A stretch of 64,000 bases of DNA, taken from the NCBI GenBank assembly GCA_001001045.1, contig LCIL01000005.1:21409-85408 (forward strand), given 5' to 3'. The position numbers were made by a program, and so were the translations under genes. Shown here piece after piece: positions 18,926-42,855 of this stretch (position 1 is its first letter; each line of letters starts with the position of its first letter). Origin of the DNA: Candidatus Woesebacteria bacterium GW2011_GWA1_44_23. GTDB lineage: Bacteria > Patescibacteriota > Microgenomatia > UBA8517. Under the pieces are notes generated by a model that saw nothing but the letters and a program-made list of their open reading frames with translations, did not search any database and was not told the DNA's origin.

Positions 18926-21900
18926 ATGATCAAAGGAACAAGCGGAACACTTAGTGCAATTACGGGGACAGCCGGATATGTAACTTACTGGAGTGATGCC
19001 AATACCATCGCAGCGGAACAATTTGTGACCACAGCCCAAGGAGGCTTGGGAGCAAATGTAACGGCAGGAGGTATAGGAGAAATCCTTTACTCAACAGGAA
19101 CAACCACGTATGACTCCTTAACTGCGGGGACTAGCGGATACATCCTTAAAGCAGCAGGAGCGGCTGCTCCTGCCTGGACGGCGCCTGCTGCTTTGACCAA
19201 GACGGATGACACCAATGTTACCGCCACTCTCGGGGGAAGCGCTTCCACCGCTTTGGTCAATGCTGCCTCCATTACCCTGGGCTGGACGGGACAGCTTTCC
19301 TTGGCCAGGGGCGGAACAAATAAAGCAATGACAGCATCAGCCGGAAGTGTTGCCTACTCCGATGCCGATTCACTGGAACTAGGGGTGGGAACTTCCGGAT
19401 ACGTACTTACCTCAGCAGGAACGGGAACTCCTACTTGGACCAATCCTGCAACACTCGGAACCAATCACTGGCAGCTTGCAAATAACATCCTGGCACCTAT
19501 TAATGTAACCAATGATCTTGCTATTGGGGGAAACTCTACAGCTTCTGCAAAATTCCAGGTGATGGGAACAACAGGCAATATCTCAACAGCCAACAATACC
19601 GTTGACTGGACACTAAACTCTGCAGTTGATGCACTAAATATTGATACCAATACACTTTCAGTAGATGCATTAAATAACAGAGTAGGGATTGGGACAACCA
19701 ATCCTTCTTCAAAAGTGGAGATCTCCGATGGAACAGACTCATTACAAATAGCCGCAAATGGCGATCTTACCTTTGTTGATGCTGACAGCTTTGCGCAAAT
19801 CATAGGACCTAACGGGGGCGGTCTCTATATCAGCTCAGGGACAAGTCAGGATATAGACCTTAATGCCGGCTCAAACAGAATCTATGTTAACGAGGGTCAA
19901 TTAGAATTTAATGCTTCAAGCAGCGATGCTATTTTAGATATTAATAAAAATGGAACAAGTCTACTAAGAATTGAGAATGAATGGGGTGGACAGGTTGCCA
20001 ATATGTATGTGGAGGGCCGCGTCGGTATTGGCACGACTGCTCCTACCGCAGAACTTGATGTTGCCGGTACCGCTTCTGTCTCTGCACTAACCATACGCGG
20101 CGCGTCTCCCGGCTATATAAACCAAGTCAACGGAAACAGCCTAATATTCCGCACGTCTCCCGGAGGAGATACGGGACTTACCGAAAAAATGACTCTCACC
20201 AACGCAGGCTACCTTGGAATCGGAACAACGTCTCCAAATACTAGTCTTCAGGTTGGATCGGGAACGAGCAATCACTCGCTAAGTGCTAATGACACCCTTC
20301 TAACCGCCGATCTTGAACTGGATGGAACAATGTATCTTGATGGCGGACAGATAGCCAATTCGGCCGGAACGGTGTCATTTAGCCTTTCCGCCACACCTGC
20401 AACTTCTTACAACTATCTTTCGTCCAGCAGTTGGCTTATTGATAATCCTGTCAATGTAGGCCAGGCTGCCCTGATGGTAAATCAAGGGAAAGGAGGAGAC
20501 ATTTTTACAGCCTCCGCTTCGGGATCTACTAAGTTTGTCATCAAGAACGATGGCAAAGTCGGGATTGGGACAACAGATCCTCAGGCAATTACACATATAA
20601 AAAACATGAATAACACGCAAGAGATGACAATTCTCCAAATCGATCCTGGTACTTTCACTACGGCAGGCACCTTCTCTGGCATAGTGGCAGATTTCAGTAG
20701 TATTACCCGAAGCGATAGCGACGCCATTGTTTATGGTATCTTTTTAAACAGTCCAACGGCAGGAGGCACCCCGCTCGATACGGTATACGGATTGTACATT
20801 GCAGGGACCAACTGGAATTACGGGATCGTGTCCGAAGACGATGTCTGGTTTCTATCCAACACAACTATCGGGGACGCCAGCGGTGATGCGGTTACGGTAA
20901 ATAGCGCCGGTTGGACTTTCAGCAATGATACCAACTTTTCTCTTTCCGGTGGGGTCAACGGACTGTCTTTCGATACAAGTACTCTGTCAATTGATGCAAC
21001 TAATGATCGAGTCGGCATTGGAACAACCAGCCCCAATGCCAAATTGGAAGTAACCGGAGATGTTTACCTGAGTAACGGTGCAACCCGGAATATAAAAATC
21101 CCAGCGAATATTGATGCTAACGGCAACGATCTTTATATCATGGCCGGAAGCGGAACCTCGACCGGGCCTGGCAATTATAACGGAGGGGATCTCTATCTTG
21201 ATGCCGGCAGTGGTATCAATGCCGGAGTCCCGGGGGATATTCTGCTTCAAACCACGAGCGGTAATGTCGGTATCGGTTTGACAAACCCCAGCCAGGCTCT
21301 TCAGGTTACAGGTAGTATTAATACCAGCGTCCAGTTCCTGGGTCAATCGGCAGATACCGTCTCTGCTCCGGCTTTCTCATGGACCGGTAATACGACTACC
21401 GGAATATATCGTCCTGCCGCCAGCCAAATTGCTCTTACCCTTGGAGGAACCCAAAGAGCTCTTTTCACCGCCACAGCCGTTACCCTTACCGGCCAGACAA
21501 CCCTTACCGCCTCATCACTGTCTACTCTCACCACATCCGCCACACTTAGTTTGGGTGGTGCCACAACTTTGACCTTTACTTCAGACAATGCCACCATCAA
21601 TGGTTCTGATGTTGCAGACGGCGATCTGACTCTTCAAGGAACATCCAACGCGACAAGGACAACAAGTTACGTTCTGCTTCAACCCACAGCCGGATACGTC
21701 GGCATTGGCACGACAGCACCTGTAACCCTGCTACATATACCCAGCACAGCCGATGGAGGTTTGAGCACTCATGGCTCTGAGGTATTAGGCCCGGTATCTG
21801 GAATAAATATGATGATGGATTCTAACGAAATCATGGTAAGAAACAATGGTGTCGCTTCAGCGCTGTATTTAAATCATGAGGGTGGGACTGTCAATATAAG

Positions 21901-23980
21901 CCAGTCAACTGCAGGTATCTTTTCAGTTAACACTAATGGACTTTATGTTAATGCAAGCAATAGTGTCGGCATTGGAACAACGGCACCCGGGGAGGAGCTT
22001 GATATAGCAGGACAAATCCAATTTAACTTGGATGGCGCCGCGGGAGATAATACGATTGGTGTTTGTAAAAGCGTGGCTGACAGCACGGGGGTAGAAGCCG
22101 ACGTTGAATTCCGAGACTGCAGCGGTACTCCGGGTGATATTGCGGAATATTATGCGGCGGAGGCCGACTTACATCCCGGAGACATTGTATCTATTACATA
22201 CATTGACAACAAACCCACGTTGATCAAAACAAACACTTCCTATGACAAGAATGTATTTGGAGTTGTATCTACCTATCCTGTCGGACAACACGGAAAACCG
22301 TTAAGTTCCGGTCTCTATTCTGCAGATGAATATCCAACAGCCATAGGTCTTGCAGGAAAAGTGCCGGTTAAAATCAGCGCAGAAAACGGACCTGTGGCAC
22401 CGGGTGATCCACTCGTATCGTCCTCCATTCCCGGCGTTGCCATGAAAGCTGGAAAAGCAGGCAAGATCATCGGTTATGCAATTGAACCGTATGACGGATC
22501 AACAACGGTCAGTAACGAGGTCAGGGTGCAGGAGTCTATGCGTAGCGGCGCAACCATGAAGTTCAATCTTGACCCACAAGACCCGACAGAGCCCGGAGTC
22601 GGCAAAATTCTGATGGCAGTCAACAATTCCACATATGATCCGGATATTTACCTTACCGATTCCGGCAATCTGAACGTTACCGTTGATCAAAACGGAAACT
22701 ACGAACTTACCGATACCACGACAGGAAACATAATCGACAGGGTTGGTGCATTTGCCGAAACGGTAGCCGCAACGGTGAGGGCAGGAGCAATTGTAACTTC
22801 CGATTTTGTTACCGAAAACCTGACCGCAGAAGTTGCCAACATAGCAAGTGTTGTTGCCCAAAACATTCAGGCAGGTGTGGTTGTAACTCAAGACCTGGCT
22901 ACAACTTCATTTACGGCTTTCCAGGGGACGGTTGACAATATGCTGATAAGTACGGGTTTGGTAGCCCAAAATGTACAAACGGATCTTATCTCTCCCCTTG
23001 CCGATTCTACTGACGTAAAAGTACAAGTGGGATCAAGCGCAACACCCTCCGGAAAGTTCATTGTCCAAGATACCGAAGGAAGTGCTGTGGCTTCAATCGA
23101 CAACGAAGGGAACGCCACATTCTCCGGAACTCTATATGCGGGAGCGATTGAGTCTCAGAGCCTGGATGACATTAAAGCCCTTTTGACCAGTGTCCAGACG
23201 GATCAGAATCTTTTGAAGGATGCTGCAAACTGGAATACTTTAACTGCAACAAACTCTGCAAGTCTTGATCAAATAGCGGTTGCCGATCTTTATGTAACCA
23301 ATCAAGCGGCCATTAATTCTCTCTCCGTAACCAATAGTGTAACAATAGGTTCCGATATGGTATTTAGTTCAACGCTCAACGACCAGTCATTGGCCGTCAA
23401 CAGCATCGATACGCTTTCCGCCCCCCTTAAGATTCAGGCTCTTGCCATGGCTCCTGTAGAAATCATGGCGGGCTTAGTCACAATTGATACTCACGGAAAT
23501 GTAAATATCAGCGGGAATCTTTATGTTGCCGGCCGGGTTAAGGCTTCCGGATTGACTTTGTCGGAAACCGATGTCCCGGAGAATGCTACAGCTTCAGCTC
23601 TTCTTACTCTTCAAAACCTGGCCGGGAGCGAGGTTGCCTCGGTTAATGCATCCGGCTCGGCCCAATTCGGATCAATCTCCACTCCCCAACTTGTTATTGC
23701 GGGGGCTGATGCAACGCAATCGGGTACTATTATAAACGGGGTTATTTCTACAAACTCAACCGTCGGGCAGGCGGTTATCCCGGCGGGAACCAGTGAAATT
23801 ACGATTAAAAATCCTAAAGTTACGGACTACACTTTGGTCTACGTAACTCCAACCTCTTCGACGGAAAACAACGTACTATATGTAAAGAGTAAACAGGGAG
23901 GTCAGTTTGTTGTTGGGTTTGCAAACCCAATAAATGTTGACGTCAGCTTTAACTGGTGGATAGTTCAAGTGAGCCAATGA
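18926..23980 (+). CDS. giant surface protein, part 2 (1684 aa; frame open from 18836): tail-fibre-like repeats and a distinct C-terminal region
   Basis: Same GIGTT repeat family. The frame continues upstream to 18836, which points to a single frameshift relative to part 1. C-terminal region GDIAEYYAAEADLHPGDIVSI...VFGVVSTYPVG. Confidence 0.7.
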   Translation: MIKGTSGTLSAITGTAGYVTYWSDANTIAAEQFVTTAQGGLGANVTAGGIGEILYSTGTTTYDSLTAGTSGYILKAAGAAAPAWTAPAALTKTDDTNVTATLGGSASTALVNAASITLGWTGQLSLARGGTNKAMTASAGSVAYSDADSLELGVGTSGYVLTSAGTGTPTWTNPATLGTNHWQLANNILAPINVTNDLAIGGNSTASAKFQVMGTTGNISTANNTVDWTLNSAVDALNIDTNTLSVDALNNRVGIGTTNPSSKVEISDGTDSLQIAANGDLTFVDADSFAQIIGPNGGGLYISSGTSQDIDLNAGSNRIYVNEGQLEFNASSSDAILDINKNGTSLLRIENEWGGQVANMYVEGRVGIGTTAPTAELDVAGTASVSALTIRGASPGYINQVNGNSLIFRTSPGGDTGLTEKMTLTNAGYLGIGTTSPNTSLQVGSGTSNHSLSANDTLLTADLELDGTMYLDGGQIANSAGTVSFSLSATPATSYNYLSSSSWLIDNPVNVGQAALMVNQGKGGDIFTASASGSTKFVIKNDGKVGIGTTDPQAITHIKNMNNTQEMTILQIDPGTFTTAGTFSGIVADFSSITRSDSDAIVYGIFLNSPTAGGTPLDTVYGLYIAGTNWNYGIVSEDDVWFLSNTTIGDASGDAVTVNSAGWTFSNDTNFSLSGGVNGLSFDTSTLSIDATNDRVGIGTTSPNAKLEVTGDVYLSNGATRNIKIPANIDANGNDLYIMAGSGTSTGPGNYNGGDLYLDAGSGINAGVPGDILLQTTSGNVGIGLTNPSQALQVTGSINTSVQFLGQSADTVSAPAFSWTGNTTTGIYRPAASQIALTLGGTQRALFTATAVTLTGQTTLTASSLSTLTTSATLSLGGATTLTFTSDNATINGSDVADGDLTLQGTSNATRTTSYVLLQPTAGYVGIGTTAPVTLLHIPSTADGGLSTHGSEVLGPVSGINMMMDSNEIMVRNNGVASALYLNHEGGTVNISQSTAGIFSVNTNGLYVNASNSVGIGTTAPGEELDIAGQIQFNLDGAAGDNTIGVCKSVADSTGVEADVEFRDCSGTPGDIAEYYAAEADLHPGDIVSITYIDNKPTLIKTNTSYDKNVFGVVSTYPVGQHGKPLSSGLYSADEYPTAIGLAGKVPVKISAENGPVAPGDPLVSSSIPGVAMKAGKAGKIIGYAIEPYDGSTTVSNEVRVQESMRSGATMKFNLDPQDPTEPGVGKILMAVNNSTYDPDIYLTDSGNLNVTVDQNGNYELTDTTTGNIIDRVGAFAETVAATVRAGAIVTSDFVTENLTAEVANIASVVAQNIQAGVVVTQDLATTSFTAFQGTVDNMLISTGLVAQNVQTDLISPLADSTDVKVQVGSSATPSGKFIVQDTEGSAVASIDNEGNATFSGTLYAGAIESQSLDDIKALLTSVQTDQNLLKDAANWNTLTATNSASLDQIAVADLYVTNQAAINSLSVTNSVTIGSDMVFSSTLNDQSLAVNSIDTLSAPLKIQALAMAPVEIMAGLVTIDTHGNVNISGNLYVAGRVKASGLTLSETDVPENATASALLTLQNLAGSEVASVNASGSAQFGSISTPQLVIAGADATQSGTIINGVISTNSTVGQAVIPAGTSEITIKNPKVTDYTLVYVTPTSSTENNVLYVKSKQGGQFVVGFANPINVDVSFNWWIVQVSQ

Positions 23981-24220: not shown

Positions 24221-26149
24221 ATGGAAATAACCAAGCTCATCCGAAATATCGAAAAATACATCTTGGTAGCACTGGCGGGTTTATTTGCTTTATTTGTTTT
24301 TCCGAAATTTGCCTCCCCCTTCGTTGTCCCTAAGGAAATTTTTGGGGCCGTTGCCGTATCGACAGTGTTGGTTCTTTGGTCGGTGAGATCGATTATTAAA
24401 AGAGAGTCGACTTTTTCTGTCGGAAAGTTTGATCTTGGAGTACTTTTGATAGCACTTGCCTATGTTGTTGCGGCGGTAGTTAAAACTCCGAACAAAATGG
24501 AGGCATTTTTCTTCCCCGGTACCGTAACTTTTGTCATTATTTCTGCTATATTCTATTTTCTGGTCAACCAGTTCGGCAGAAGGACAAAGAACCTGATTTT
24601 AATTGCGCTTTTCGGCTCGGGAATCCTTCTTACGATCTCAATTCTTTTTACGCAGCTTGGGCTTTTTGCCAAAATTCCCCAGCTTCCGGATTTTATGAAA
24701 AACTCTTCTTTCAATCCCGTAGGCGGAGCGCTGCCTTCGGCTCTTTACCTGGTAACCTTACTTCCCGTTGGTATTGCCCTGGTTATTAAGGAGAAGGACT
24801 TGGCCAAAAGGTTATTTTACGGGGTTGCGTCTGTTGTTATCTTTTTTGGAGCAGCTCTTCTTACCATTAACCTTCTTCCCGGAAAGCCCCAAGCCTTGAT
24901 TTTTCCCAGCCTGCTGACCACCTGGGCGATAGTTATTGAGACCTTGAAGACAAGCCCAGTCTGGGGAATGGGCCCTGATAACTATGTTACCGCTTTTAAC
25001 TTGTTTAGGCCCATTTCCTACAATCAAACTGCTCTTTGGGCCGCCAGATATGCCACCGCGAATAACTACTATTTTACTTTGATTACCGAGGTTGGTTTTG
25101 CCGGACTTGCAGCCATCTCGGTACTTCTTATCGGTATTTATAGGGCGGTAGTGGCGGGCTTTAAACAGAAAAACTGGGAGATTGCTTCTTTGGCTCTGCT
25201 GGTTGTGCTTTTTGCGATATTTCCATCCGCTCCGGTTCTCTTTTTCCTTTTGATGGCTCTTCTGGCGGTTTTCTCGAAATCGGAGGAGAAATCCGTAAGT
25301 TTGGCTACCAATAGGGTCCCGACTGCCATTGTTGCAGCTCCGATACTTATTGGGGTTGTTGCTTTGGCAATTTTTGGTACAAGGGCCGTGATGGCGGAAG
25401 TAACTTACAAGAAGTCTTTGGATGCATTGGGCAGCAACAACGCCAAGGATACCTATACGCTAATGGCTCAGGCGATAACCCAGAGCCCATATGTGGATCG
25501 GTACCACGCTTCCCTGGCGCAGGTAGAGATGGCCATTGCTTCGTCAATCGCCAACAACAAGGATTTGACGGAAGAAGACCGTCAAACTATAACACAACTG
25601 ATCAGTCAGGCTATAAATGAGGGCAAGGCGACCGTGACCCTTAATCAGGGAAGGTCGGCCAATTGGGAGCTTCTTGCCCAGATCTATCAGAACATTATGT
25701 CCTTTGCCGAAGGGGCCGATCAGTTCGCCATTGATACATACACGCAGGCGGTTGCGCTTGATCCGATAAACCCCAACCTGAGAATCGGACTCGGTGGAGT
25801 GTATTACGCACTCGGCAGATACGATGACGCGATTGATATCTTTAAGCTTGCAGCTTTGGCAAAGCCCGATTTGGCCAACTCCCATTATAATCTGGCCATA
25901 GCCTATGGAGAGAAGAAAAACTATGACAGTGCAATTGCCGAGATGAACACGGTCTTGACCCTTGTGGCCAAAGATTCACCCGACTACACCTTGGCCAAAA
26001 ATACTCTGGATGCCTTGGAGAAAGCCAGACCCGCAACGCCCGCCGCAGCCGGATCTGAAAATCTGACCCCTCCCCAAAAGCAGGAAACAGTCATAGAGCC
26101 TCCCATAGAACTTCCGGAAGAGGCTACTCCCCCCGCAGCCACACCGTAA
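24221..26149 (+). CDS. O-antigen ligase (Wzy_C)-domain polytopic membrane protein with C-terminal TPR repeats; candidate protein O-oligosaccharyltransferase
   Basis: Ten or more TM helices. WGMGPDNYVTAFNLF...ANNYYFTLITEVGFAGL resembles the Wzy_C/WaaL/PglL motif. C-terminal TPR repeats ...LGRYDDAIDIFKLAALAKPDLANSHYNLAIAYGEKKNYDSAI. Confidence 0.65.
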   Translation: MEITKLIRNIEKYILVALAGLFALFVFPKFASPFVVPKEIFGAVAVSTVLVLWSVRSIIKRESTFSVGKFDLGVLLIALAYVVAAVVKTPNKMEAFFFPGTVTFVIISAIFYFLVNQFGRRTKNLILIALFGSGILLTISILFTQLGLFAKIPQLPDFMKNSSFNPVGGALPSALYLVTLLPVGIALVIKEKDLAKRLFYGVASVVIFFGAALLTINLLPGKPQALIFPSLLTTWAIVIETLKTSPVWGMGPDNYVTAFNLFRPISYNQTALWAARYATANNYYFTLITEVGFAGLAAISVLLIGIYRAVVAGFKQKNWEIASLALLVVLFAIFPSAPVLFFLLMALLAVFSKSEEKSVSLATNRVPTAIVAAPILIGVVALAIFGTRAVMAEVTYKKSLDALGSNNAKDTYTLMAQAITQSPYVDRYHASLAQVEMAIASSIANNKDLTEEDRQTITQLISQAINEGKATVTLNQGRSANWELLAQIYQNIMSFAEGADQFAIDTYTQAVALDPINPNLRIGLGGVYYALGRYDDAIDIFKLAALAKPDLANSHYNLAIAYGEKKNYDSAIAEMNTVLTLVAKDSPDYTLAKNTLDALEKARPATPAAAGSENLTPPQKQETVIEPPIELPEEATPPAATP

Positions 26150-26256
26150 AGGGTACTCCTTGCAAGTTCTTCGGATACAAAAGTTACCTGAAAACCCTGT
26201 TTTAGCCTCAATAAATGCCCCTTGCAAAGTCTCTTCTTACAAGGTAGTTTTAGATT

Positions 26257-27417
26257 ATGCCTGCCAAACTGCTTAGAAGGGTGGCTGAAGAAGGTACGTT
26301 CAGTCATATATATAATAACGGGGTTGAAAATATAGCCATCTTCAAGGACCGGCAAGACTTTGAAGTCTTTCTGGGTTTTTTGAAAGATTACCTATCTCCG
26401 GTCAGTTCCGAAGTTCCCAAAAAAGAATTCACTATTGAAGGCCGCTCTTTCCGGGGCACTCCCCGCCAACCTAAAAATTACCTGGGCAGAGTCGAGCTTA
26501 TCGCCTACCGGCTCACCCCTACCCATTTCCACCTCATCCTGCATCAGAATACCCCGGACTCGCTTGGGAATTTCATCAGGTCCCTCTGCACCAGATACTC
26601 GATATATTTTAATAAAAAATATTCCCATTCCGGAGCTTTATTCAACGGCCCCTACAAATCAGTTTATATCAAGGGTATATCCCAGCTTTTGCACTTCACC
26701 CGGTATCTCCACCGCAGTCCAGATAATGGTGAAGACCCTGTCAAAATATATACATCATACCCAGAGTATATCGGTCAAAGACAATCTTCATGGGTAAAGA
26801 CGAACGCGGTGCTTTCGGTCAAAGGAGTAGACGAGTACAAGGATTTTGTAGAAAAATATCAGCTTAACCAAGAAGAAAGAGATATTCTCGAAGGTGTTCC
26901 TTTTGATGTCAAAGCCCCGCACAAGGAAGAAGTCCTTTATGCACCCGACACCGTTTCCGCTTCTTCCCATGGGACACCTGAACTTTCCCACAAGGCACCG
27001 CCTACTGATTTAAAACCCCGGCCCCGTATTTTCGAGTACGGACTGGCAATGGGGGTTTTTATTGTACTTCTGAGCTTTGGGTTAAATAATGTCCGTGTTT
27101 CTCAGGCAAGATATTCAACAAACTCTCCGGTTCTTTCCGAATCAACAAGCATTATGCCCTCCCCGACCGCTGCCTTACCACCCACCGGTTCTCCCGAACC
27201 AAAAATAATGGTAACAGTTAAAACTGCTGATGCCTCGGTAAGTGCCAATATCCGCAAGGAGCCGAGTTTTCAGGCGGAAATAATCGGTATGGCCAAAAAC
27301 GGTGAAGTTTTTGAATCCGTGTCGATAGGCCCGGAGTGGAATGAGATCAAACTAAATGACGGTTCAATAGGATTTATATTATCAAAACTGGTACTAATAG
27401 ATCAAACTAATATCTAA
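26257..27417 (+). CDS. IS200-like Y1 (HUH) transposase domain fused to TM helix and C-terminal SH3b domain (copy 1, HuH intact)
   Basis: NIAIFKDRQDFEVFLGFL...VELIAYRLTPTHFHLILHQ...RYSIYFNKKYSHSGALFNGPYKS...RYLHRSP...YTSYPEY; TM helix GLAMGVFIVLLSFGL; SH3b ANIRKEPSFQAEIIGMAKNGEVFESVSIGPEWNEIKLNDGSIGFI. Confidence 0.7.
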   Translation: MPAKLLRRVAEEGTFSHIYNNGVENIAIFKDRQDFEVFLGFLKDYLSPVSSEVPKKEFTIEGRSFRGTPRQPKNYLGRVELIAYRLTPTHFHLILHQNTPDSLGNFIRSLCTRYSIYFNKKYSHSGALFNGPYKSVYIKGISQLLHFTRYLHRSPDNGEDPVKIYTSYPEYIGQRQSSWVKTNAVLSVKGVDEYKDFVEKYQLNQEERDILEGVPFDVKAPHKEEVLYAPDTVSASSHGTPELSHKAPPTDLKPRPRIFEYGLAMGVFIVLLSFGLNNVRVSQARYSTNSPVLSESTSIMPSPTAALPPTGSPEPKIMVTVKTADASVSANIRKEPSFQAEIIGMAKNGEVFESVSIGPEWNEIKLNDGSIGFILSKLVLIDQTNI

Positions 27418-27418
27418 T

Positions 27419-28009
27419 ATGCGCAAGATTTTAACATATATCGGCTTTGTAATCGCATGTGTTTTGGTTTCTCTGCTTTTTGTAACCGCCACTACATATA
27501 TTCAGTTAGCCGTTGCTGTCATCCTCTACCCCATCGTTGCCTATTTTGTAATGAAGATCCTCCCCCGCAAGACTAGAGTGGTCCCGGCAGTCGCGGTACA
27601 GACAGCGGGAACACAGGAGGAGGTTGCCGATTTTGACAGACGTACATTTCTCAAACTTGTGGGGGCAACAGGAATTTTCTTTTTTGTGTCCTCGCTTTTC
27701 GGTAAATGGGCCGGTGCTTTGCCGTTTGGCAAATCCTTGGGGTTGGGAGGCAATAGCATACAGGGGAATTCCGCCACCCCCGGAGCCGGCAACCCAGGAT
27801 CTTTGACTGCAAATGGCTACCAAATTTCCGAGATCGATGACGGCGCAATTACGTTTTACGGATTTACCAATGTTGACGGATCCTGGCTAATCATGAAGGA
27901 AGACACCGAAACAAGTTCTTTCCGCTATGCAAAAGGAAGCTCGGGATTTCCCGCAAGTTGGGATAACCGGCAAAATCTCAAGTACGACTACTACTATAAT
28001 CTCTTCTGA
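27419..28009 (+). CDS. membrane protein with internal twin-arginine-like motif (DRRTFLKLVGATG) and conserved C-terminal domain; partner of the Y1-TM-SH3b gene (copy 1)
   Basis: The start lies 1 nt after the upstream stop. Two N-terminal TM helices, then RRTFLK plus a hydrophobic stretch. C-terminus YGFTNVDGSWLIMKEDTETSSFRYAKG...YDYYYNLF is conserved with the 43904..44572 product. Confidence 0.6.
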   Translation: MRKILTYIGFVIACVLVSLLFVTATTYIQLAVAVILYPIVAYFVMKILPRKTRVVPAVAVQTAGTQEEVADFDRRTFLKLVGATGIFFFVSSLFGKWAGALPFGKSLGLGGNSIQGNSATPGAGNPGSLTANGYQISEIDDGAITFYGFTNVDGSWLIMKEDTETSSFRYAKGSSGFPASWDNRQNLKYDYYYNLF

Positions 28010-29007
28010 GATTCTTTTGTATTAAGCCCTGCCCGGATTTGGCTTTCGCGGGTAACTATGGCTCCGTAAAAAAGAATACTCAGGGAGAACAACAAAAACA
28101 TTGCCGCCTGACGCACATAAAATGGAGTCGTCGTATCAACCATCTGTTGATCCGGTGAAGCCGTGACCAAAAGCCAATTTCTGTTTCCCAAAGGTACGGG
28201 GGAATATGAAATCAGACGGCCGTCCCTAGCTAAACTCCCTTCCTTTGTCGTATTTAGGGCATCCTTGAGACTGTCGCTGACAGTTTGATTACCCAGAAAC
28301 GGTTCTTCGCCGGCTTCAAAAACCTTGACTCCCACTTTATCAGGCGTCTTGCTATCGTACAATAGATCCCCTTGCACACCTATCAGATACACCTCTGTAG
28401 CATCCGATATTTTCATTAACTCCAAATAGTGTTCCGTCAAAGGCTTCAATTTCGCCGAGGTAACTACAGCCCCTACAAAAACGCCGTTTTGAAATACCGG
28501 AGAGACCACCGGAATTATTACCTGGCCCTTGGTGCCGCCCATTCGGCTAACAATCGAGGTGCCAACCAAATATTCCCCTTCATCTGACCAGTTTTTGGCC
28601 CAGTCAAAATAATCACGGTCGGCCAGGGAAACTCCCACATCTTGCGTTCCCAAAACATTGGAGATAAACCTGACAATTCCGCGGCTGTCCGTTAATGCGA
28701 CTCCGGCAACCAGGCCGCTGTTGCTCCATTGAGTTACAAAGGCGTCTAAATCAGATTGGGTATTTTCACCCCAGCTTTCCATACTGCCCAACTTCGCAAG
28801 TACCGCAACCGAATTGCCGAACGTTTCGAAAAAAGCCTCAAGATTGCTGGCTTCAGCTCTCGTCACCATTTGTTGCTGATTTAAAAACTGGTTAGTGACC
28901 GCAGGTTTGACTCTCCAGCTTAGGATTACTAAAAAGGCAGCACCCAAACCCACTATCAAAAGAAGGCCAAATAACCAAATCCTGCCCGACAATGCTTTCC
29001 AAAACAT
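27994..29007 (-). CDS. membrane protein with periplasmic Cache-like sensor domain flanked by two TM helices, no output domain
   Basis: N-terminal TM helix IWLFGLLLIVGLGAAFLVIL, a 250-aa extracytoplasmic domain, and C-terminal TM helix AAMFLLFSLSILFYGAIV. Confidence 0.45.
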   Translation of the reverse strand: MFWKALSGRIWLFGLLLIVGLGAAFLVILSWRVKPAVTNQFLNQQQMVTRAEASNLEAFFETFGNSVAVLAKLGSMESWGENTQSDLDAFVTQWSNSGLVAGVALTDSRGIVRFISNVLGTQDVGVSLADRDYFDWAKNWSDEGEYLVGTSIVSRMGGTKGQVIIPVVSPVFQNGVFVGAVVTSAKLKPLTEHYLELMKISDATEVYLIGVQGDLLYDSKTPDKVGVKVFEAGEEPFLGNQTVSDSLKDALNTTKEGSLARDGRLISYSPVPLGNRNWLLVTASPDQQMVDTTTPFYVRQAAMFLLFSLSILFYGAIVTRESQIRAGLNTKESQKRL

Positions 29008-29100
29008 CTTGTTTAAAGGTTAGGGCCAAATGTTTACCCTGTCAATACGTCTTGAGCGTCCCACTGTAAAATTGTTGGGGTATGTCATATAATCGGCCGT

Positions 29101-29886
29101 ATGCTCTCGATCATAATTCCGTCTTATAAAGATCCCCTACTGGGTAAAACCATTGAATCTCTTCTGGAAAACGCCGAGGGTGAAATAGAAATAATCCCCG
29201 TTCTTGACGGATACTACCCGGAAACCCCGATAAAAGAGGATAGAAGAATAAGAGTTGTGCACCTTGGCAGAAATCAAGGTATGCGAAGAGCGATAAACGC
29301 GGGAGTTTCGGTAGCCCGGGGGGAATTTCTGATGCGGAACGACGAGCACCAGATGTTCGGCAAGGGATATGACGTAATTCTTACCCGTGATTGTCAGCCT
29401 AACTGGATTATCACACCCAGGCGTTATGCGCTTGATCCTGTAAAGTGGGAAATAATGAAAGAGGTTCCACCGGTAGATTTCATGAAGCTTAAAATCGTCA
29501 ACATGGCACCCGGTGTCAGAAAATTTTCAGGTGTTGAGGCCCCGGGAGATCCGGGAAAACCCATTCAGGAATCAATGGCTATGCAGGGAAGCTGTTGGGT
29601 AATGCCGCATGCATGGTGGGACAAAGTTATCGGAGAGCTCGAAAACGAAGGTTATGGACCACATTATCAGGACAGCCATGAGATGGTGTTTAAAACCTGG
29701 CAGGCAGGGGGAAAATTAATGGTAGATAAAAACACCTGGCACGCCCACAAACACAGGAATTTTCCCCGGACGCATAATAACGGCACTGCCGAAAACCCAT
29801 CCAATAATGAATCCTGCTGGGCTTATTCATTAAGTATTTGGGAAGATTACTATAATAAAGAAATTAAACCAAGGTGGAAGGTTTAA
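29101..29886 (+). CDS. glycosyltransferase family 2-like (GT-A) protein, paralog family with QGSCW motif
   Basis: MLSIIIPSYKDP...; motif MAMQGSCWVMP shared with the 31019 and 36362 products. Confidence 0.55.
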   Translation: MLSIIIPSYKDPLLGKTIESLLENAEGEIEIIPVLDGYYPETPIKEDRRIRVVHLGRNQGMRRAINAGVSVARGEFLMRNDEHQMFGKGYDVILTRDCQPNWIITPRRYALDPVKWEIMKEVPPVDFMKLKIVNMAPGVRKFSGVEAPGDPGKPIQESMAMQGSCWVMPHAWWDKVIGELENEGYGPHYQDSHEMVFKTWQAGGKLMVDKNTWHAHKHRNFPRTHNNGTAENPSNNESCWAYSLSIWEDYYNKEIKPRWKV

Positions 29887-29913
29887 CAAAATTGGAGTTA
29901 TAATTCCATCACG

Positions 29914-30132
29914 GTGGCTATTATATATGAAAGTATGAAAAAAACTATTGGGGAGCTTATCGACGGACTGTCTATTACTAACAACAAGATCTTCCATCTC
30001 GTCGACAAAGTCCAGCGCAACGAGCATACGCGCGAGGATGCAAAAAAAATCCAAGATTTAAATAAGTTAAGAAGTGAGTATATGAATGCTATAAACGAAT
30101 TCTTTAAGGAAAGGATAGATATAAAAGTGTGA
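29914..30132 (+). CDS. small hypothetical coiled-coil protein (72 aa)
   Basis: Its stop overlaps the next gene's GTG start (translational coupling). No similarity recognised. Confidence 0.3.
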   Translation: MAIIYESMKKTIGELIDGLSITNNKIFHLVDKVQRNEHTREDAKKIQDLNKLRSEYMNAINEFFKERIDIKV

Positions 30133-30917
30133 TTAGTATTTTCTCTGGAACAAAATTAACATCCTCCCGGATTAGAGGTATAGAAATGGCTACCTATCTC
30201 CAGGCCAAACACAACCCAAAAGAAGGATATAAAAACGATGTTTGTATTTATGTCAAACCCAAAGAAATGAGCGCAATTAAAGACGGTGACTGGGTTGATT
30301 TTCTAGATTCCAACATCAGCCTCATCGTCCAGTTGAAGGATCGGCCAAAGGTAAAGGTGATTGCCGCTTCGGAAGCCAGCAATGAAGCCCTCAAGCGGGT
30401 TTTGCCAAACGAAATTATCCTTATTCCCTCACATCACATCAATCAGGAAAAACTTAAAAGAACAAGAAGGCAGATCTCTATCGGAGGCTATATCGGAGGA
30501 TTCTCACCCATGTATGAAGAAATTAGAAGAGGGTTAAAGAAAATCGGATTTGATTTTGTAACCTGCTTCGATTTCAAAGGACGAACAGATGCGATGAAAC
30601 TGTACGAAAGCATCGATCTTCTGATTATTGGGTGGTGGACCGGAGACGACAGCCCCCATAAGATACCGACCAAGATTATCAACGCCGCCTCGTTTGGAAT
30701 CCCGTCGATTGCATATCCTTTGCGCGGATATAAAGAAATTGAAGGATTTTATGTTTCTGCTCATAATTTAAGTGAGATAATAACTGAAGCGGAAAAATTT
30801 AAGGATGAGGACTATTACAATAGATGGGCAAAGAAGATTTCCAAGATGGCTGAAAAATACCATATTAGCAAGATTGCCAAACTATATAAAAAACTAAAAC
30901 CAGGTTTTCCTGCTTAA
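30129..30917 (+). CDS. putative glycosyltransferase (GT-B-like C-terminal motif)
   Basis: ...KIINAASFGIPSIAYPLRGYKEIEG resembles the GT4-type nucleotide-sugar-binding C-terminal motif. Confidence 0.4.
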   Translation: MISIFSGTKLTSSRIRGIEMATYLQAKHNPKEGYKNDVCIYVKPKEMSAIKDGDWVDFLDSNISLIVQLKDRPKVKVIAASEASNEALKRVLPNEIILIPSHHINQEKLKRTRRQISIGGYIGGFSPMYEEIRRGLKKIGFDFVTCFDFKGRTDAMKLYESIDLLIIGWWTGDDSPHKIPTKIINAASFGIPSIAYPLRGYKEIEGFYVSAHNLSEIITEAEKFKDEDYYNRWAKKISKMAEKYHISKIAKLYKKLKPGFPA

Positions 30918-31018
30918 ATCTCTTGAAGGAATGGGGTATTATACACATTCGGAGAGAAGAGTAATTCCATACCTTCCCTGCTGAGAATCGGGTAAAATGG
31001 TGCGTATAGAATATCCAT

Positions 31019-31888
31019 ATGGGTTCAAACAAAAAACCAATAAACTTATCAATAATAATTCCCAGTCGAGATTGCCCCTATTTAATGAAAACTATCCAAA
31101 GTATATTAGACAATTGCGTCACCAATATTGAAATTATGGTAAATATTGACGGAAAACCCCCGAGAAAATTTATTAAGGACAAAAAGGTCACATATATCGT
31201 ACAACCTACTCCAATTGGGATGCGGGGCGGAATAAATAATGGGCTTAAAGCAGCTAAGGGCAAATTTATAATGAAGTGCGATGACCACTGCTTATTTGCT
31301 AAAGGATTTGACAAGATTCTGACAAACACCATGCAAGAGAATTGGCTGGTAACCCCCAAACGTTATTCTCTAAACGAAGTGAAATGGGAAAGGGATGAAA
31401 CCCGACCAATTAAAGAATATCTCTACCTATCCTATCCCAAAAAGTCCGTTCACGGACTTGCCATGTTCCCCGTAGATTGGAATAAAAAAAGTGATCGTCT
31501 TATAGATGATACCATGATGATTCAGGGAAGCTGTTGGCTAGCAAACAGAAAATATTTCATGAAACGAGTGGGTTTTCTTGACGATAAGCCTGAAACGTAC
31601 GGGACCTTTGCCCAGGAACCCGTAGAAGTTGCTTTGAAATACTGGCTTGGAGGCGGGGCGGTCAAGGTAAACAAAAATACCTGGTATGCCCACCTAAAAA
31701 AGAGTAAAAGGTACTATAACGAAACAGGCTGGGCAGAAAAGTTTGCAAAGCAGAACAAAGCAGTAGCAAAAGGCAATGAATGGGCAACCGTACACTGGAT
31801 GAATAATGAGGAACCCAACATGATTCACCCTTTTAGCTGGTTTATAAAAAAATTTCAACCGATTCCGGGTTGGGAGAATTACAAATGA
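31019..31888 (+). CDS. glycosyltransferase family 2-like protein (QGSCW paralog)
   Basis: LSIIIPSRDCP...MMIQGSCWLANRKYF. Confidence 0.55.
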   Translation: MGSNKKPINLSIIIPSRDCPYLMKTIQSILDNCVTNIEIMVNIDGKPPRKFIKDKKVTYIVQPTPIGMRGGINNGLKAAKGKFIMKCDDHCLFAKGFDKILTNTMQENWLVTPKRYSLNEVKWERDETRPIKEYLYLSYPKKSVHGLAMFPVDWNKKSDRLIDDTMMIQGSCWLANRKYFMKRVGFLDDKPETYGTFAQEPVEVALKYWLGGGAVKVNKNTWYAHLKKSKRYYNETGWAEKFAKQNKAVAKGNEWATVHWMNNEEPNMIHPFSWFIKKFQPIPGWENYK

Positions 31889-33372
31889 AAAAAATACTAA
31901 TAACAGGATGCGGAGGGATGTTGGGCGATGCTGTTTATGCTCAATTACGTAAAAGGTATCATGTCAACGCCACCGACATCAACCTCATTGAACCCTGGCT
32001 AAGTTACTTGGACGTCAGAGACCTTAAGAGTGTTAAAAAGGTTTGCGCCGAATTCAAACCGGATTATCTGATTCATCTGGCAGCCTTAACCGACATGGAA
32101 TACTGTGAAACCCACCCAGAAGAGGCGGCGCAAGTTAACGGAACTGCCACAGAAAATCTGGTTAAAATCTCCAAAAAACTTGATATTCCCTTTGTCTACA
32201 TCAGCACTGCAGGTATTTTTACCGATGACAAAAAGGAGCATAGCGAAAAAGACGACCCCAAAGACACTCCTGTAAGTGTATATGGCAAAACCAAATACCA
32301 AGGTGAGGTAGCAGCGAAATCATGGCGTAAGTCGATCATAATCAGGGCCGGTTGGATGATGGGTGGCGGACCCAAAAAGGACAAAAAATTCATCAATAAA
32401 ATTGTCAAACAATTAAGTAGCGGCGCTACAAAGATAAATGTGGTCAACGACAGGGTCGGCACCCCAAGCTATACCTACGATTTGGCAAAAATAATTGTAT
32501 TTCTTCTCGAAAGGAATCTTTACGGTTTATATCACGGCACTTGCGACGGAGGAAACGTAACCCGCCACGATGTCGTCAGTCATATACTTGAATGTTTTAA
32601 CTTGCAAGACAAGGTCAAAGTGGTTGAGGTGGGATCAGATTATTTTAAGGATAGTTTTTTTGCCCCGCGGCCGTTTTCCGAACAGCTAGGCAACAAAAAA
32701 CTTAAATCCACCAACCCAGAATTATTCCGCAGCTGGCGGGACTGTTTAAAGGAATATTTAGGCATGTTTTATTGGAAAGTATCAGGCAACCATACCCCGC
32801 TTTGCGATCTGGCCTATAAATACGGAACCGACAAATGTCCGGAAATAAACCATTCGTATACCCCTTTTTATTACAAATTGCTACAACCCAAAAGAAACTC
32901 TATCAAAAAGATTTTGGAAATAGGAATAGGCTACCCGTCCAACATGAATCATATCGTCCCCCATTACCGGGCGGGTGCAAGTTTATATATGTGGAGGGAG
33001 TTTTTCCCCAACGCCATGATTTACGGAGCTGATATTCTCCCGGAAGCGTTGTTCAAAGACGCACATATAGAAACTTTTTTGTGTAACCAGAAAAAAGACA
33101 CGGACCTAACGAATTTAATCAAAAGCACGGGCTCGGATATCGATATCGTAATTGACGACGGCTCTCATGTAAAAAAGGTCCAGGTGTTTACTTGCCTTAT
33201 CCTATTGCCTCTTCTCAAAAAAGATGTTATTTACATAATAGAAGATGTTAAAGATGCCGTCGAGGTTACCGGAATGATTAAAAAACTCGGCGGGTATGAT
33301 TGCGAGGTTCCGAAGTTGAACCCGGAAAGGCAAGTGAGGCAGGATTGTTTGGTTATTGTTAAAAACAAATGA
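31870..33372 (+). CDS. bifunctional protein: RmlD-like dTDP-4-dehydrorhamnose reductase (SDR) fused to class I SAM-dependent (sugar O-)methyltransferase
   Basis: N-terminal ITGCGGMLG...YGKTKYQGE (YGxSKxxGE RmlD signature). C-terminal LEIGIGYP...DIVIDDGSH (MTase motifs I and post-I). Confidence 0.6.
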   Translation: MGELQMKKILITGCGGMLGDAVYAQLRKRYHVNATDINLIEPWLSYLDVRDLKSVKKVCAEFKPDYLIHLAALTDMEYCETHPEEAAQVNGTATENLVKISKKLDIPFVYISTAGIFTDDKKEHSEKDDPKDTPVSVYGKTKYQGEVAAKSWRKSIIIRAGWMMGGGPKKDKKFINKIVKQLSSGATKINVVNDRVGTPSYTYDLAKIIVFLLERNLYGLYHGTCDGGNVTRHDVVSHILECFNLQDKVKVVEVGSDYFKDSFFAPRPFSEQLGNKKLKSTNPELFRSWRDCLKEYLGMFYWKVSGNHTPLCDLAYKYGTDKCPEINHSYTPFYYKLLQPKRNSIKKILEIGIGYPSNMNHIVPHYRAGASLYMWREFFPNAMIYGADILPEALFKDAHIETFLCNQKKDTDLTNLIKSTGSDIDIVIDDGSHVKKVQVFTCLILLPLLKKDVIYIIEDVKDAVEVTGMIKKLGGYDCEVPKLNPERQVRQDCLVIVKNK

Positions 33373-34091
33373 AAAATCTACTGGTTTATGTAAGTAAAGA
33401 TAAAAAGTTTAACCGGGAGTGTGAGACTCTGGCCAAAATCCAAATTGACAACAGTCTTCGTTTAAAGTGGAGAAAAGAAGATATTTTAATGGTCACTAAC
33501 TTTGATTATGAGTATCGGGGAGTTAAAGCTATCGTTGTAGGGGACGAGAATTATTGTGCAGTCAGGCCAAGATCGATTAAAACTTCGATAATCCCCCACT
33601 TAATTGAAAAGGGAATCATAGAAAAAAGGCATATTTACTGGAATCATGATTTTGACGCTTTTCAATTGCATTCTATCAAAGATGAAGAATTGGGACTAGA
33701 CGGTTTTGATGCGGGCTTTACCGACTACGGTTGGAAAAACGACTGGTGTTTGGGAAGTGATTTTATAAAGGAGAGCGCAAAAGACATCTTTGAGTGGCTG
33801 AGGGACGCAATATTTGCTAATTGGGAGGATGAGGAAATACTCGGAAGAATTACGAGAAGGAATACACATAATATCAACTCGAGAATAAAGAAAATGAATA
33901 TAACTTATCAGATTGGAATGAAAAACGTTGATTTTAACTACAAAATAGCTGCAAAACCGCTAAAAGTTCTCCACTTCCATCCGCATAAACCGGGGCTCCT
34001 AGACATCTTCATGTACGGCAAAAACCAAACGGACAAACCCCTTATGCCTAAGGGTTTAATCAATATATTTAATAAACACGGAATAAAGTAA
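33369..34091 (+). CDS. hypothetical protein (glycan-locus associated)
   Basis: 240 aa, no recognisable motif. Start overlaps the upstream stop. Confidence 0.45.
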   Translation: MKNLLVYVSKDKKFNRECETLAKIQIDNSLRLKWRKEDILMVTNFDYEYRGVKAIVVGDENYCAVRPRSIKTSIIPHLIEKGIIEKRHIYWNHDFDAFQLHSIKDEELGLDGFDAGFTDYGWKNDWCLGSDFIKESAKDIFEWLRDAIFANWEDEEILGRITRRNTHNINSRIKKMNITYQIGMKNVDFNYKIAAKPLKVLHFHPHKPGLLDIFMYGKNQTDKPLMPKGLINIFNKHGIK

Positions 34092-34260
34092 ATACGTTAT
34101 GAGCAAACCATCAGTGGTGGCAATCTTGCCGAATTTTTAAAAAGTATTAGAAAAAGGTGCGAAAACCTATAGAGATCCATAATATTTGCAATCCAAATAT
34201 TAATTCCCAAACGAATATCCTGGGTATCGGAATGAAGGTCATGGAAATTTTCAGAAATAT

Positions 34261-34944
34261 ATGAATAGAGATTTAACAATAATTTATTACTCATCTAATC
34301 GGGAAGTGCCCGAGTTTGAGACCAGAATTAGGAACAATATTTTAAAAGTTTGTGGCGATTTGCCCATAATAAGCGTTACTCAAAAGCCGATAGACTTTGG
34401 AAAAAATATTGTTGTTGGAGATGTGGGAGCTTCTGGGTTTAACATGTTTAGGCAAGTTCAAATTGCCTGCAAGGAGGCAACAACGAAGTTCGTAGTTTCT
34501 GCTGAAGCGGATTGCTTGTACCCCCCGGACTATTTCACCTTTATTCCCGAGAAGGACAACGTATGTTACCGTAATAAAAATCTATATGTAATGGGTCAAT
34601 ATAGAACCTATTTCTACAAAAAGGAGGAAGGTGCAACGCACGCCCAAGTGGTCGGGCGGGAGTTCTGCTTAAGAACTCTGGATAAACTTTTTGAAGGAGG
34701 TCCGAATTGGTCAATCAAGGAGAGAAATTTCCCCAAAGAGAGGACTCATCAAAAAAAGGAGGATGTTTTTGGCAGTGACGAAATTGAATTCTACGAGACA
34801 AAAAATCCGATTGTACAAATAAAAACAAGCCACAGCATGCGACATTACACTCATTCTGATAGAATACCTCGTGACGAACTTCCCTATTGGGGCAAGGGGG
34901 TAGATTTTAGAAAAAAATATTACGATATCGGATTTAGGCATTAA
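34261..34944 (+). CDS. hypothetical protein, paralog family B (QPIDFGKNIV motif), possible GT-A-like
   Basis: Shares ...V(S)..QPIDFGKNIV...(E)AD/EHD..LY.P..F with the 35578..36321 product. Confidence 0.45.
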   Translation: MNRDLTIIYYSSNREVPEFETRIRNNILKVCGDLPIISVTQKPIDFGKNIVVGDVGASGFNMFRQVQIACKEATTKFVVSAEADCLYPPDYFTFIPEKDNVCYRNKNLYVMGQYRTYFYKKEEGATHAQVVGREFCLRTLDKLFEGGPNWSIKERNFPKERTHQKKEDVFGSDEIEFYETKNPIVQIKTSHSMRHYTHSDRIPRDELPYWGKGVDFRKKYYDIGFRH

Positions 34945-34946
34945 AT

Positions 34947-35576
34947 ATGAAACTAATAGATGCAATTAAAGAGCAGCACGGAAGGCCATTTACAATCCCC
35001 GATTGCTCCCGTGATGAACTCCCCGAATGTTTTAAACAAATGGGCTACAAAACAGGGGCAGAGGTCGGGGTTTATAAGGGGGCGTTTACCGAAAAATTCT
35101 GTAAAGCAGGCTTAAAAATGTATGCCATAGATCCCTGGAAGGCATATCAGGGAGCCGGCCGTACTCAACAGGAACAAGCAAGGCAAGACTTCCTTTACGG
35201 GCATACTCAAAGGACTCTCGCTCCCTATAAAGACTGTACAATAATCAGAAAGACGTCGATGGACGCTCTAAACGACTTCGGCCCGGGAAGCCTGGACTTT
35301 GTCTATTTGGACGGCGATCACCGCTTCCCGTACGTGGCACAAGATATTTATGAATGGAGCGAGAAAGTCAAAAACGGTGGGGTGGTCTCCGGGCATGATT
35401 ATTTCTGCACGGATCCACGGGCAAAAAATGTTTTGTGCCAGGTGGGCGCGATAGTAGATGCTTATGTTAGTGCCTTCGGAATTGAAAATTTTTATGTATT
35501 CGGACGGTCCAAATCACTGGAACTTGAGGCCAAAGATGACAGATATCTAAGCTGGATGTGGATTAAGCCTCTCTGA
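34947..35576 (+). CDS. class I SAM-dependent methyltransferase (Methyltransf_24/TylF-like)
   Basis: GAEVGVYKGAFT...FVYLDGDHRFPYVAQDIYEWSEKVKNGGVVSGHDY. Confidence 0.55.
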   Translation: MKLIDAIKEQHGRPFTIPDCSRDELPECFKQMGYKTGAEVGVYKGAFTEKFCKAGLKMYAIDPWKAYQGAGRTQQEQARQDFLYGHTQRTLAPYKDCTIIRKTSMDALNDFGPGSLDFVYLDGDHRFPYVAQDIYEWSEKVKNGGVVSGHDYFCTDPRAKNVLCQVGAIVDAYVSAFGIENFYVFGRSKSLELEAKDDRYLSWMWIKPL

Positions 35577-35577
35577 C

Positions 35578-36321: not shown

Positions 36322-36361
36322 ATGAATAAAGGCATGGTTCTCCACACCGCTTTTCCCGGCT

Positions 36362-42844: not shown

Positions 42845-42855
42845 AACTTAAAACT

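Follow-up and report, generated by a model that had tools for sequence, protein, structure and literature searches.

RayT-like domesticated Y1/HUH transposases are known, and where their core is known to be extended, the addition is a cytoplasmic domain that binds DNA. Only DnaA_C/helix-turn-helix (HTH) additions are described in the two main surveys of this superfamily, with no SH3 domain and no membrane anchoring (PMC6006769; PMC5581495); the additions in TnpA-Y1 subclass 2.1.2 are C-terminal Bac_DnaA_C/HTH domains (PMC6006769). Here, we describe a 64,000-nucleotide (nt) stretch (the window) of contig LCIL01000005.1 from Candidatus Woesebacteria bacterium GW2011_GWA1_44_23, in which a gene (copy 1) encodes a Y1/HUH head followed by one transmembrane (TM) helix and a bacterial SH3 (SH3b) domain. 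This gene is translationally coupled to another, which encodes a partner with three TM helices and an invariant twin-arginine-type motif. Literature searches for the Y1-TM-SH3b architecture found no paper, and the first-pass annotation of this DNA, which had known of no described example, agrees with both surveys. Our preferred reading, drawn from sequence comparison and held tentatively, is that the head may be the noncatalytic, palindrome-binding part of an envelope complex with control over its own promoter.

The head shares the HUH/Y1 fold with RayT/TnpA-REP (E. coli YafM, 4ER8) and with class 2 TnpA-Y1 (Quentin et al. 2018, PMC6006769). It also shares the class-2 motif series, namely HuH, R-Y-x-H on helix alpha-D, and a Ser-containing extension (YTSYPEY here, WPFSTFH in RayT) that had at first been mistaken for a C-terminal Tyr cluster. 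Like RayT, the gene is low-copy, vertically inherited, and domesticated, and it adjoins a cognate imperfect palindrome. Unlike RayT, it adds a TM helix and an SH3b domain to the head and comes with an obligate membrane partner, the equivalent of Asn119 is lost, and the catalytic Tyr is often lost in the family. There is also no high-copy population of repetitive extragenic palindromes (REPs) in the 64-kb window or in 17 metagenome stretches, and REP_Tyr_transpos (NCBIfam NF047646) gives copy 1 only 11.6 bits against a cut-off of 80. The best structural matches of the head are to the IS200/IS605 transposases, i.e., TnpA of ISHp608 (2A6M) and ISDra2 (2XO6), with a template modeling score (TMt) of up to 0.66. 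However, the gene differs from an insertion sequence (IS) of this type on every count: it has no Y-x-x-x-Q motif, no tnpB, and no 3' hairpin at copy 1, it is not multi-copy, its identity to these enzymes is 12-15%, and its Y1_Tnp score is below the cut-off. Subclass 2.1.2 likewise consists of a Y1 core with an added C-terminal domain and no REP association, but the addition there is a cytoplasmic DNA-binding HTH, whereas here it is a TM helix and a predicted extracytoplasmic SH3b domain.

The Y1/HUH-TM-SH3b protein and its membrane partner

The features of the copy 1 gene are as follows.

26257..27417, plus strand: Y1/HUH-TM-SH3b gene, copy 1, 386 amino acids (aa) (open reading frame [ORF] list, Pfam, AlphaFold2 [AF2], Foldseek)
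26257..26901, plus strand: HUH/Y1 (IS200/RayT-like) domain, aa 1-215 (predicted local distance difference test [pLDDT] >90, Foldseek, hhalign)
27028..27105, plus strand: single TM helix, aa 258-283 (AF2 helix and family hydropathy)
27208..27402, plus strand: SH3b domain, aa 318-382 (Pfam, family profile versus PDB, Foldseek)

An AF2 model of the copy 1 protein, built from an alignment of 119 homologs, has a mean pLDDT of 82 and exceeds 90 across aa 1-215. In it, a disordered linker joins a mixed alpha/beta head to one long helix (258-283), and a beta-barrel (318-382) follows. In Foldseek searches of the PDB, the head matched 2xo6 (ISDra2 TnpA), 2a6m (ISHp608 TnpA), and 4er8 (RayT), with E ~3e-4, probability 1.00, and TMt 0.5-0.66, as well as the IS200/IS605 transposases 2vjv, 2f4f, and 2ec2. 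The C-terminal tail matched the bacterial SH3 domains 2kt8 and 2krs. The SH3b assignment also holds at the sequence level, where SH3_3 (PF08239) scores 31.9 bits over aa 329-378 of copy 1 and 33.1 bits in copy 2 (Pfam cut-off, 27), and the family profile finds SH3b domains among the PDB sequences (4krt, 4e-12; 2krs, 6.5e-6). The TM helix has a mean 19-mer hydropathy of 2.13 over 161 family members. The fusion of a TM helix to an SH3b domain had been proposed from the sequence alone, and these results bear it out.

The Y1 assignment is of a different kind. Y1_Tnp (PF01797) reaches 19.5 bits in copy 1 and 15.2 bits in copy 2 (Pfam cut-off, 23), and because this score and that of REP_Tyr_transpos fall below their cut-offs, the assignment rests on fold and motifs. 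A search of PDB sequences with the single copy 1 protein returned no transposase match; with the family profile, a match to ISDra2 TnpA reached only E 0.055 and was confined to the HuH strand. Precomputed PF01797 annotation is present on most homologs of copy 1. The IS200-like Y1 domain of the first-pass annotation therefore stands as a fold (matches to 2xo6, 2a6m, and 4er8) but not as a hit to the Y1_Tnp hidden Markov model (19.5 < 23 bits).

Altogether, the copy 1 product is a bitopic membrane protein with a ~215-aa cytoplasmic HUH/Y1 head and a C-terminal SH3 domain, and the Y1/HUH-TM-SH3b architecture is real, judging from the model and the domain matches. We infer an N-in, C-out topology because the folded 215-aa head has no preceding signal peptide and because SH3b domains usually sit outside the cell. 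In a positive-inside test, the charges flanking the TM helix were near-equal on the two sides (+1.05 versus +1.18).

The copy 1 protein has 377 database relatives, nearly all of them 350-420 aa long with PF01797 and PF08239, and the named sources of these long proteins include Levy-, Curtiss-, Gottesman-, Woese-, and Daviesbacteria. A scan of one genome per species gave 123 loci, and of their informative titles the majority were Microgenomates, other Patescibacteria, or WWE3; several titles of the "uncultured Gammaproteobacteria" type are apparent placeholders, not confirmed. The architecture is present in at least 160 Patescibacteria proteins, mostly from Microgenomates, and such a number of independent sequences rules out a gene-call or assembly artifact. 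Database labels of the members read only "SH3 domain-containing protein" or "putative transposase." We conclude that the Y1-TM-SH3b gene is a vertically inherited, single-locus gene of Microgenomates/WWE3 Patescibacteria. A class of ultra-small, host-dependent bacteria keeps a membrane-anchored Y1 domain with a decaying catalytic center, a new kind of domestication. In some members (proteins P0067 and P0102), a MerR/HTH_17 domain is added at the N terminus and Phe stands in for the catalytic Tyr, which fits a DNA-binding, noncatalytic head.

The partner, the second module, and the tat genes of the window are as follows.

27419..28009, plus strand: obligate partner of copy 1, 196 aa, three TM helices, Tat-like motif before TM3, C-terminal four-stranded beta domain (alignment, model)
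27629..27655, plus strand: internal twin-arginine-type motif DFDRRTFLK, partner aa 71-79 (121-sequence alignment)
42856..43902, plus strand: copy 2, 348 aa, Y1-TM-SH3b architecture with a dead site (HuH to R-F-D, Tyr to Ser) (Pfam, alignment)
43904..44572, plus strand: partner of copy 2, 222 aa, motif DINKRVFLK (alignment)
49732..50873, plus strand: tatA, tatA, tatC (Pfam TatA_B_E 1e-11 and 2e-16, TatC 8e-41)

The partner begins 1 nt after the copy 1 ORF. Across the family, it lies directly downstream in 46 of 47 membrane-type loci, mostly with gaps of -8 to +7 nt, and the exception is probably an artifact of how our script places ORF starts; next to soluble Y1 genes it was never found (0/41). 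Its motif, D-x-D-[KR]-R-x-F-L-K, has invariant D71, R75, F77, and K79 in the 121 sequences, with D73, K74, and L78 at ≥90%. The tight coupling to a membrane protein with an internal twin-arginine motif had been noticed at first pass, and both parts of that observation hold across the family. In the model of the partner, TM helices span 2-23, 27-47, and 70-100 and are followed by a confident C-terminal four-stranded domain; a Foldseek search of the PDB with this model, including the C-terminal beta domain, gave no significant match. The partner of copy 1 is 100% identical to UV71_C0009G0005 of Microgenomates group bacterium GW2011_GWC1_43_13.

The module does recur at 42856..44572, as had been claimed, and tblastn for additional Y1 copies in the window returned only copy 1 and copy 2. 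The two Y1-TM-SH3b proteins are 28% identical (E 6e-50) and their partners 33% (E 1e-42); since these identities are so low, the two modules are old paralogs. Orthologs of copy 2 (P0242-P0252) are 39-54% identical to it.

Actinobacterial three-TM Rieske proteins (e.g., Sco2149) have an internal twin-arginine translocation (Tat) motif before TM3, and their third helix is inserted by Tat. The partner resembles them in its two N-terminal TM helices, a cytoplasmic loop ending in RRxFLK, a third TM helix, and a predicted exported folded domain, with tatA/tatC nearby. It differs from them in that it has no iron-sulfur domain, its beta domain has no match in the PDB, and its Tat dependence is a prediction. 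The tatA-tatA-tatC genes directly follow the copy-2-type module in two other loci (L090 and L091), and in the window SPS-repeat genes intervene. Together, the partner's Tat motif and the copy-2 tat synteny suggest that the partner is among the few clients that Tat has in such reduced genomes. All three tat genes lie in the window, which is part of a reduced candidate phyla radiation (CPR) genome, and in L090 a separate HTH_17/MerR gene (5395..5928) lies just 3' of tatC. Locus L006 encodes a stand-alone membrane protein with a C-terminal SH3b-like domain (3801..4520) and, near it, a 263-aa paralog of the partner with the motif RRDFLK (4989..5780), both without a Y1 head. Such a TM-SH3b and partner pair may be the kind of module that the Y1 gene joined.

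Decay of the catalytic site

The RayT active site comprises H59, H61, Y115, N119, H123, and E161 (PMC3479197), and the Asn/Gln metal ligand four residues after the Tyr (Tyr+4) is kept both in RayT (PMC3479197) and in IS608-type enzymes (PMC6006769). Copy 1 has H90-F-H92 and Y150, with Ser154 at Tyr+4, the position equivalent to N119 of RayT. An hhalign comparison of the family with the RayT sequence pairs HFH with H59/H61 and is limited to the HuH strand; the pairings of Y150 with Y115 and of Ser154 with N119 come from an ungapped register running from strand beta-4 through helix alpha-D, not from superposition.

We compared these sites between 161 membrane-type sequences and 41 sequences of a soluble sibling family. 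In the siblings, both histidines and the Tyr are invariant (100%), whereas the membrane-type proteins have His in 87% at H90, His in 95% at H92, and Tyr in only 70% at Y150 (Phe in 26, His in 16, and others). The Tyr+4 position is unconserved in the membrane type (T, A, E, S, or G) and Asn in 40/41 siblings. The complete H-H-Y triad is found in 101/161 membrane-type and 41/41 soluble sequences, and H-H-Y-N in 5/161 and 40/41. In the copy-2 subclade, R-F-D replaces HuH in 12/12 sequences and the Tyr is D, S, N, or E; the R113, Y114, and N119/K120/K121 region (copy 1 numbering) is largely retained. Because conserved charged residues replace its catalytic site, the sequences suggest that this subclade is a maintained pseudo-enzyme, and because it also keeps its upstream repeats, it fits a DNA-binding, noncatalytic head.

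The head of the membrane family has probably ceased to work as a transposase: nearly every member lacks the Tyr+4 Asn, 30% have another residue for the Tyr, and one conserved subclade, that of copy 2, has Arg/Asp in place of the metal site. Beyond the decayed center, the family retains the remaining surface of the domain and the 5' palindrome, which overlaps the putative -35/-10 region of the gene's own promoter. The catalytic motifs had been called intact, which is true of H90, H92, and Y150 in copy 1 and does not extend to its Tyr+4 Ser, to the Tyr of the wider family, or to the R-F-D subclade. Could copy-1-type proteins nonetheless be active HUH nucleases or strand transferases at the membrane, serving single-stranded DNA uptake or export or the nicking of hairpins, with only the R-F-D subclade dead? 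The H-H-Y residues of copy 1 and of 101/161 members speak for this, as do the strong conservation of the domain, with about 70 nearly invariant positions, and the cognate palindrome that still adjoins the gene. However, the metal ligand lost throughout the membrane family is the one kept in RayT, in IS608-type enzymes, and in nearly all soluble siblings. In addition, architecture and partner are unchanged in the 42/161 members with Phe or His for the Tyr, the HTH-fused members have Phe at this position, and the dead subclade retains architecture, partner, and upstream repeats. We consider an active nuclease unlikely; from the pattern of replacements, the function common to the family is evidently independent of the H-H-Y residues.

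The 5' palindrome and the origin of the fusion

Four features of the window concern the DNA next to the Y1 genes.

26221..26243, plus strand: imperfect palindrome CTTGCAAAGTCTCTTCTTACAAG, ending 13 nt before the ATG; presumed operator and remnant of the ancestral Y1 element's 5' hairpin (locus comparison, covariation)
26245..26250, plus strand: -10-like hexamer TAGTTT, 6 nt before the ATG; family pattern TAnnnT (58-sequence alignment)
42820..42843, plus strand: palindrome CTTGCTATC-TTCAGT-GATAGCAAG, ending 12 nt before the copy 2 start (locus comparison)
49378..49400, minus strand: orphan palindrome copy CTTGAAAGGTCTCTCCTTACAAG, then a 12-codon remnant starting MPNLL (window scan)

The first-pass annotation reported no flanking hairpin structures, which is wrong, as the palindromes at 26221..26243 and 42820..42843 show. 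An inverted-repeat finder with seed 9 missed the former on account of its mismatches, and we found it by comparing loci. The palindrome occurs at the same position in ~31 distant loci. In a 58-sequence alignment, its 10-pair stem is 76.7% paired, with double-sided changes in 8/10 pairs, and none of 500 shuffles and no slid control reached the observed covariation values. Like REP and IS608 hairpins, the stem has a conserved mismatch, 16:30. An Rfam scan of 26000..44700 gave no match at E up to 1. The palindrome is not the terminator of the upstream gene, as it is present whatever lies upstream and brackets soluble genes on both sides.

An exact scan of metagenomes gave 17 stretches with one match each, of which 15 sit 12-13 nt before a Y1 start beginning MPAK. 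The 64-kb window holds one palindrome 5' of copy 1 and one orphan, and shuffles of the window gave no match to the CTTGCAAAGTCTCTTCTTACAAG palindrome. The palindrome is a gene-linked element, not a dispersed REP. The copy-2 palindrome is preceded by a related ACTTGTAATCT unit, and related ACTTGCAATCT units, direct or inverted, stand before copy 2 and its orthologs (L090, L091). The MPNLL remnant of the orphan, ATGCCCAACCTGCTAAG, resembles the N terminus of a Y1 gene and lies between an SPS-repeat gene and tatA.

The left arm of the palindrome contains a -35-like TTGCAA. The TAnnnT hexamer starts 1 nt after the right arm and 6-7 nt before the ATG, and its T, A, and final T are nearly invariant. 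From their sequence and spacing, TTGCAA and TAnnnT are a putative promoter of a leaderless mRNA. Promoter function alone would not suffice to explain the conservation, because the TTxCAAG of the right arm is ≥90% conserved in the spacer, outside both hexamers.

This bears on the possibility that the head no longer binds nucleic acid at all and is instead a cytoplasmic domain for protein interaction or scaffolding in an envelope complex with SH3b, the partner, dCache, or Tat, with the palindrome a mere promoter or the site of another regulator (HTH_17/MerR). The TM-SH3b gene and partner paralog without a Y1 head in L006 are consistent with such a scaffold, as are the decayed apical stem pairs of the palindrome in the membrane family, the resemblance of TTGCAA and TAnnnT to a promoter, the MerR/HTH_17 gene beside tatC in L090, and the existence of HTH fusions. 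In contrast, the conserved right arm is complementary to the left, palindromes of the same kind stand on both sides of the catalytically intact sibling genes, whose Y1 enzymes are expected to act on them, and the basic and aromatic residues R113, Y114, N119, K120, and K121 are kept even in the dead subclade. We regard the scaffold as doubtful, and continue with a palindrome-binding head as the preferred reading.

The soluble siblings are found at 41 loci and encode proteins of 212-265 aa (~227) with no TM helix or SH3 domain, 35-47% identical to the membrane-type heads. They occur in Woesebacteria and other Patescibacteria (loci L046-L089, e.g., L048 3966..4709, L050, L082, and L088) as units of ~750 bp. 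On the 5' side of each gene, ~13-15 nt from the ATG, lies a hairpin whose sequence recurs, in either orientation, immediately past the stop codon; the hairpin sequence varies among loci and matches within a locus. The two flanks share an exact match of ≥12 nt in 28/41 loci (median 16), versus 5% of non-cognate pairs (median 7). The soluble siblings are laid out like IS200, with a single gene and a subterminal hairpin at each end. A genome may hold up to three soluble paralogs, which are ~66% identical, with a similarity that ends at the gene plus 35 nt; because of this divergence and confinement, the soluble unit is an old IS200/REPtron-like element, not a recently active IS.

In 16/45 loci of the membrane family, a second copy of the palindrome is found exactly at the point that corresponds to the end of the soluble protein, ~650 nt into the gene. 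In this relic the codons CTT-GAA-AGG-AGA do not vary, with CTT in 16/16 versus a background of 27%, and the residues that follow vary; since the nucleotides are fixed while the encoded residues vary, the constraint is at the DNA level. The relic encodes HLERRDxAR in the otherwise disordered linker (L012, L013, L017, L019, L023, L028, L033, L037, L043, and L044), and copy 1 has lost it. The sequences indicate that the membrane form probably arose by loss of the stop codon and read-through of the 3' hairpin into a TM-SH3b gene. Extant genomes would then show all stages, i.e., hairpin-flanked gene, read-through fusion, and pseudo-enzyme, and a former transposon end would survive as a palindrome that overlaps a promoter. 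Between the Wzy/TPR and Y1-TM-SH3 genes of L001, which comes from the genome most closely related to that of the window, lies a soluble-type Y1 gene reduced to a frameshifted remnant (7454..7745) that has its own palindrome (7474..7496).

IS ends with a C-terminal read-through had been named as the finding that would make this gene just an active IS; they appear to describe its origin and not its present state. The corresponding explanation, in which an active IS200/IS605-type element or REPtron has a transposase that reads through into a neighboring gene, would account for the hairpin in the 5' flank, for the relic hairpin at the Y1/linker junction of relatives, and for soluble siblings built as IS200-like hairpin-gene-hairpin units. 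However, the two copies in the window are only 28% identical, the architecture and the partner persist across many genera at 40-50% identity and in syntenic surroundings, and each metagenome stretch has a single, gene-linked copy of the motif. Even the soluble paralogs of one genome are only ~66% identical, with similarity confined to the gene. There is also no tnpB adjacent to copy 1, which has a TPR membrane protein gene on one side and the partner gene on the other, so the absence of tnpB reported at first pass is confirmed. An active IS is very improbable. The initial view of a membrane-tethered, domesticated HUH/Y1 protein with an extracytoplasmic SH3b domain, not a mobile IS, is supported at its core by the ≥160 proteins, the partner at 46/47 loci, and the synteny.

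Possible function and genomic neighborhood

In the mechanism we propose, the head would autoregulate the two-gene operon by binding the 5' palindrome, either in duplex form or extruded as a hairpin, and leaving it uncut. At the cell wall, the SH3b domain would form an extracytoplasmic unit with the partner's Tat-exported beta domain. The whole would be a membrane-tethered regulator like ToxR/ToxS, in a neighborhood of envelope-glycosylation and Tat genes. ToxR/ToxS, TcpP/TcpH, and CadC are bitopic regulators with a cytoplasmic winged-HTH head, one TM helix, an outside sensor domain, and a small co-encoded membrane partner that also has an outside domain. The shared layout is a functional analogy only: the head here is HUH, not winged HTH, the two are not homologous, and regulation is a prediction for our system.

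Several observations weigh against this mechanism. The N-in/C-out topology derives from domain logic, and the charge comparison did not separate the two sides. The Tat motif of the partner scores below the cut-offs of both models (PF10518, 13.7 versus 22.7; TIGR01409, 11.7 versus 16.7). A promoter scan of 26100..26300 gave no match, the hexamers of the window itself lying under the threshold of the simple scanner, and the left arm of the palindrome could be conserved simply as a -35 box. The palindrome of the membrane family is weak, with a mean of -3.9 kcal/mol versus -8.8 in the soluble family. Finally, H-H-Y is complete in 63% of members, copy 1 among them, and these may have some residual catalysis.

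A more far-reaching version, again built on sequence features, is possible but rather unlikely: the HUH pseudo-enzyme might be the hairpin-binding head of a transmembrane device, with the SH3b domain as wall reader, the Tat-exported partner domain, and an optional dCache sensor, that would couple envelope or host-contact state to transcription. If so, it would represent a new class of transposon-derived, membrane-tethered regulator whose operator is a former transposon end. In any case, the protein is a candidate link from envelope to DNA in organisms where almost no regulators have been characterized.

Two genes flank the copy 1 module.

24221..26149, plus strand: polytopic membrane protein with C-terminal TPRs (Wzy_C/O-antigen-ligase-like in orthologs) (TPR matches)
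27994..29007, minus strand: convergent dCache_1 membrane protein with no output domain, overlapping the 3' end of the partner gene (Pfam dCache_1 4e-15)

The TPR membrane protein is upstream in 8/35 loci, with Wzy_C detected in the L001 and L005 orthologs, and the dCache_1 protein takes the same convergent place in 12/44 loci. Distant loci (~45% identity) share both the Wzy_C/TPR gene upstream and the convergent dCache_1 gene downstream, and GT2, methyltransferase, and heptose-pathway genes and giant surface proteins are also found around them. In the window, the dCache_1 protein has TM helices at both ends, and its gene overlaps the partner gene by 16 nt.

The window also encodes giant proteins that consist largely of (S-P-S-x) repeats (37649..42538, 45051..46496, 46607..48106, and 47905..49365). 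Those at 37649..42538 and 47905..49365 have a common C-terminal motif of ~45 aa, PSWNxAGRPKN...GFN...LE.W.GS.W, which the short ORF 49487..49681 carries too. The ORFs 46607..48106 and 47905..49365 overlap, which suggests a frameshift or an assembly problem inside the repeats. Two further giant proteins (14202..18890 and 18926..23980) have no Pfam match. Lastly, proteins at 13675..14193 of the window and at 4320..5498 of L003 match only phage-integrase N-terminal SAM-like domains, with no catalytic domain. In these two distant genomes they lie upstream of the cluster of surface-protein, Wzy/TPR, and Y1 genes, and they may represent another domesticated recombinase fragment.

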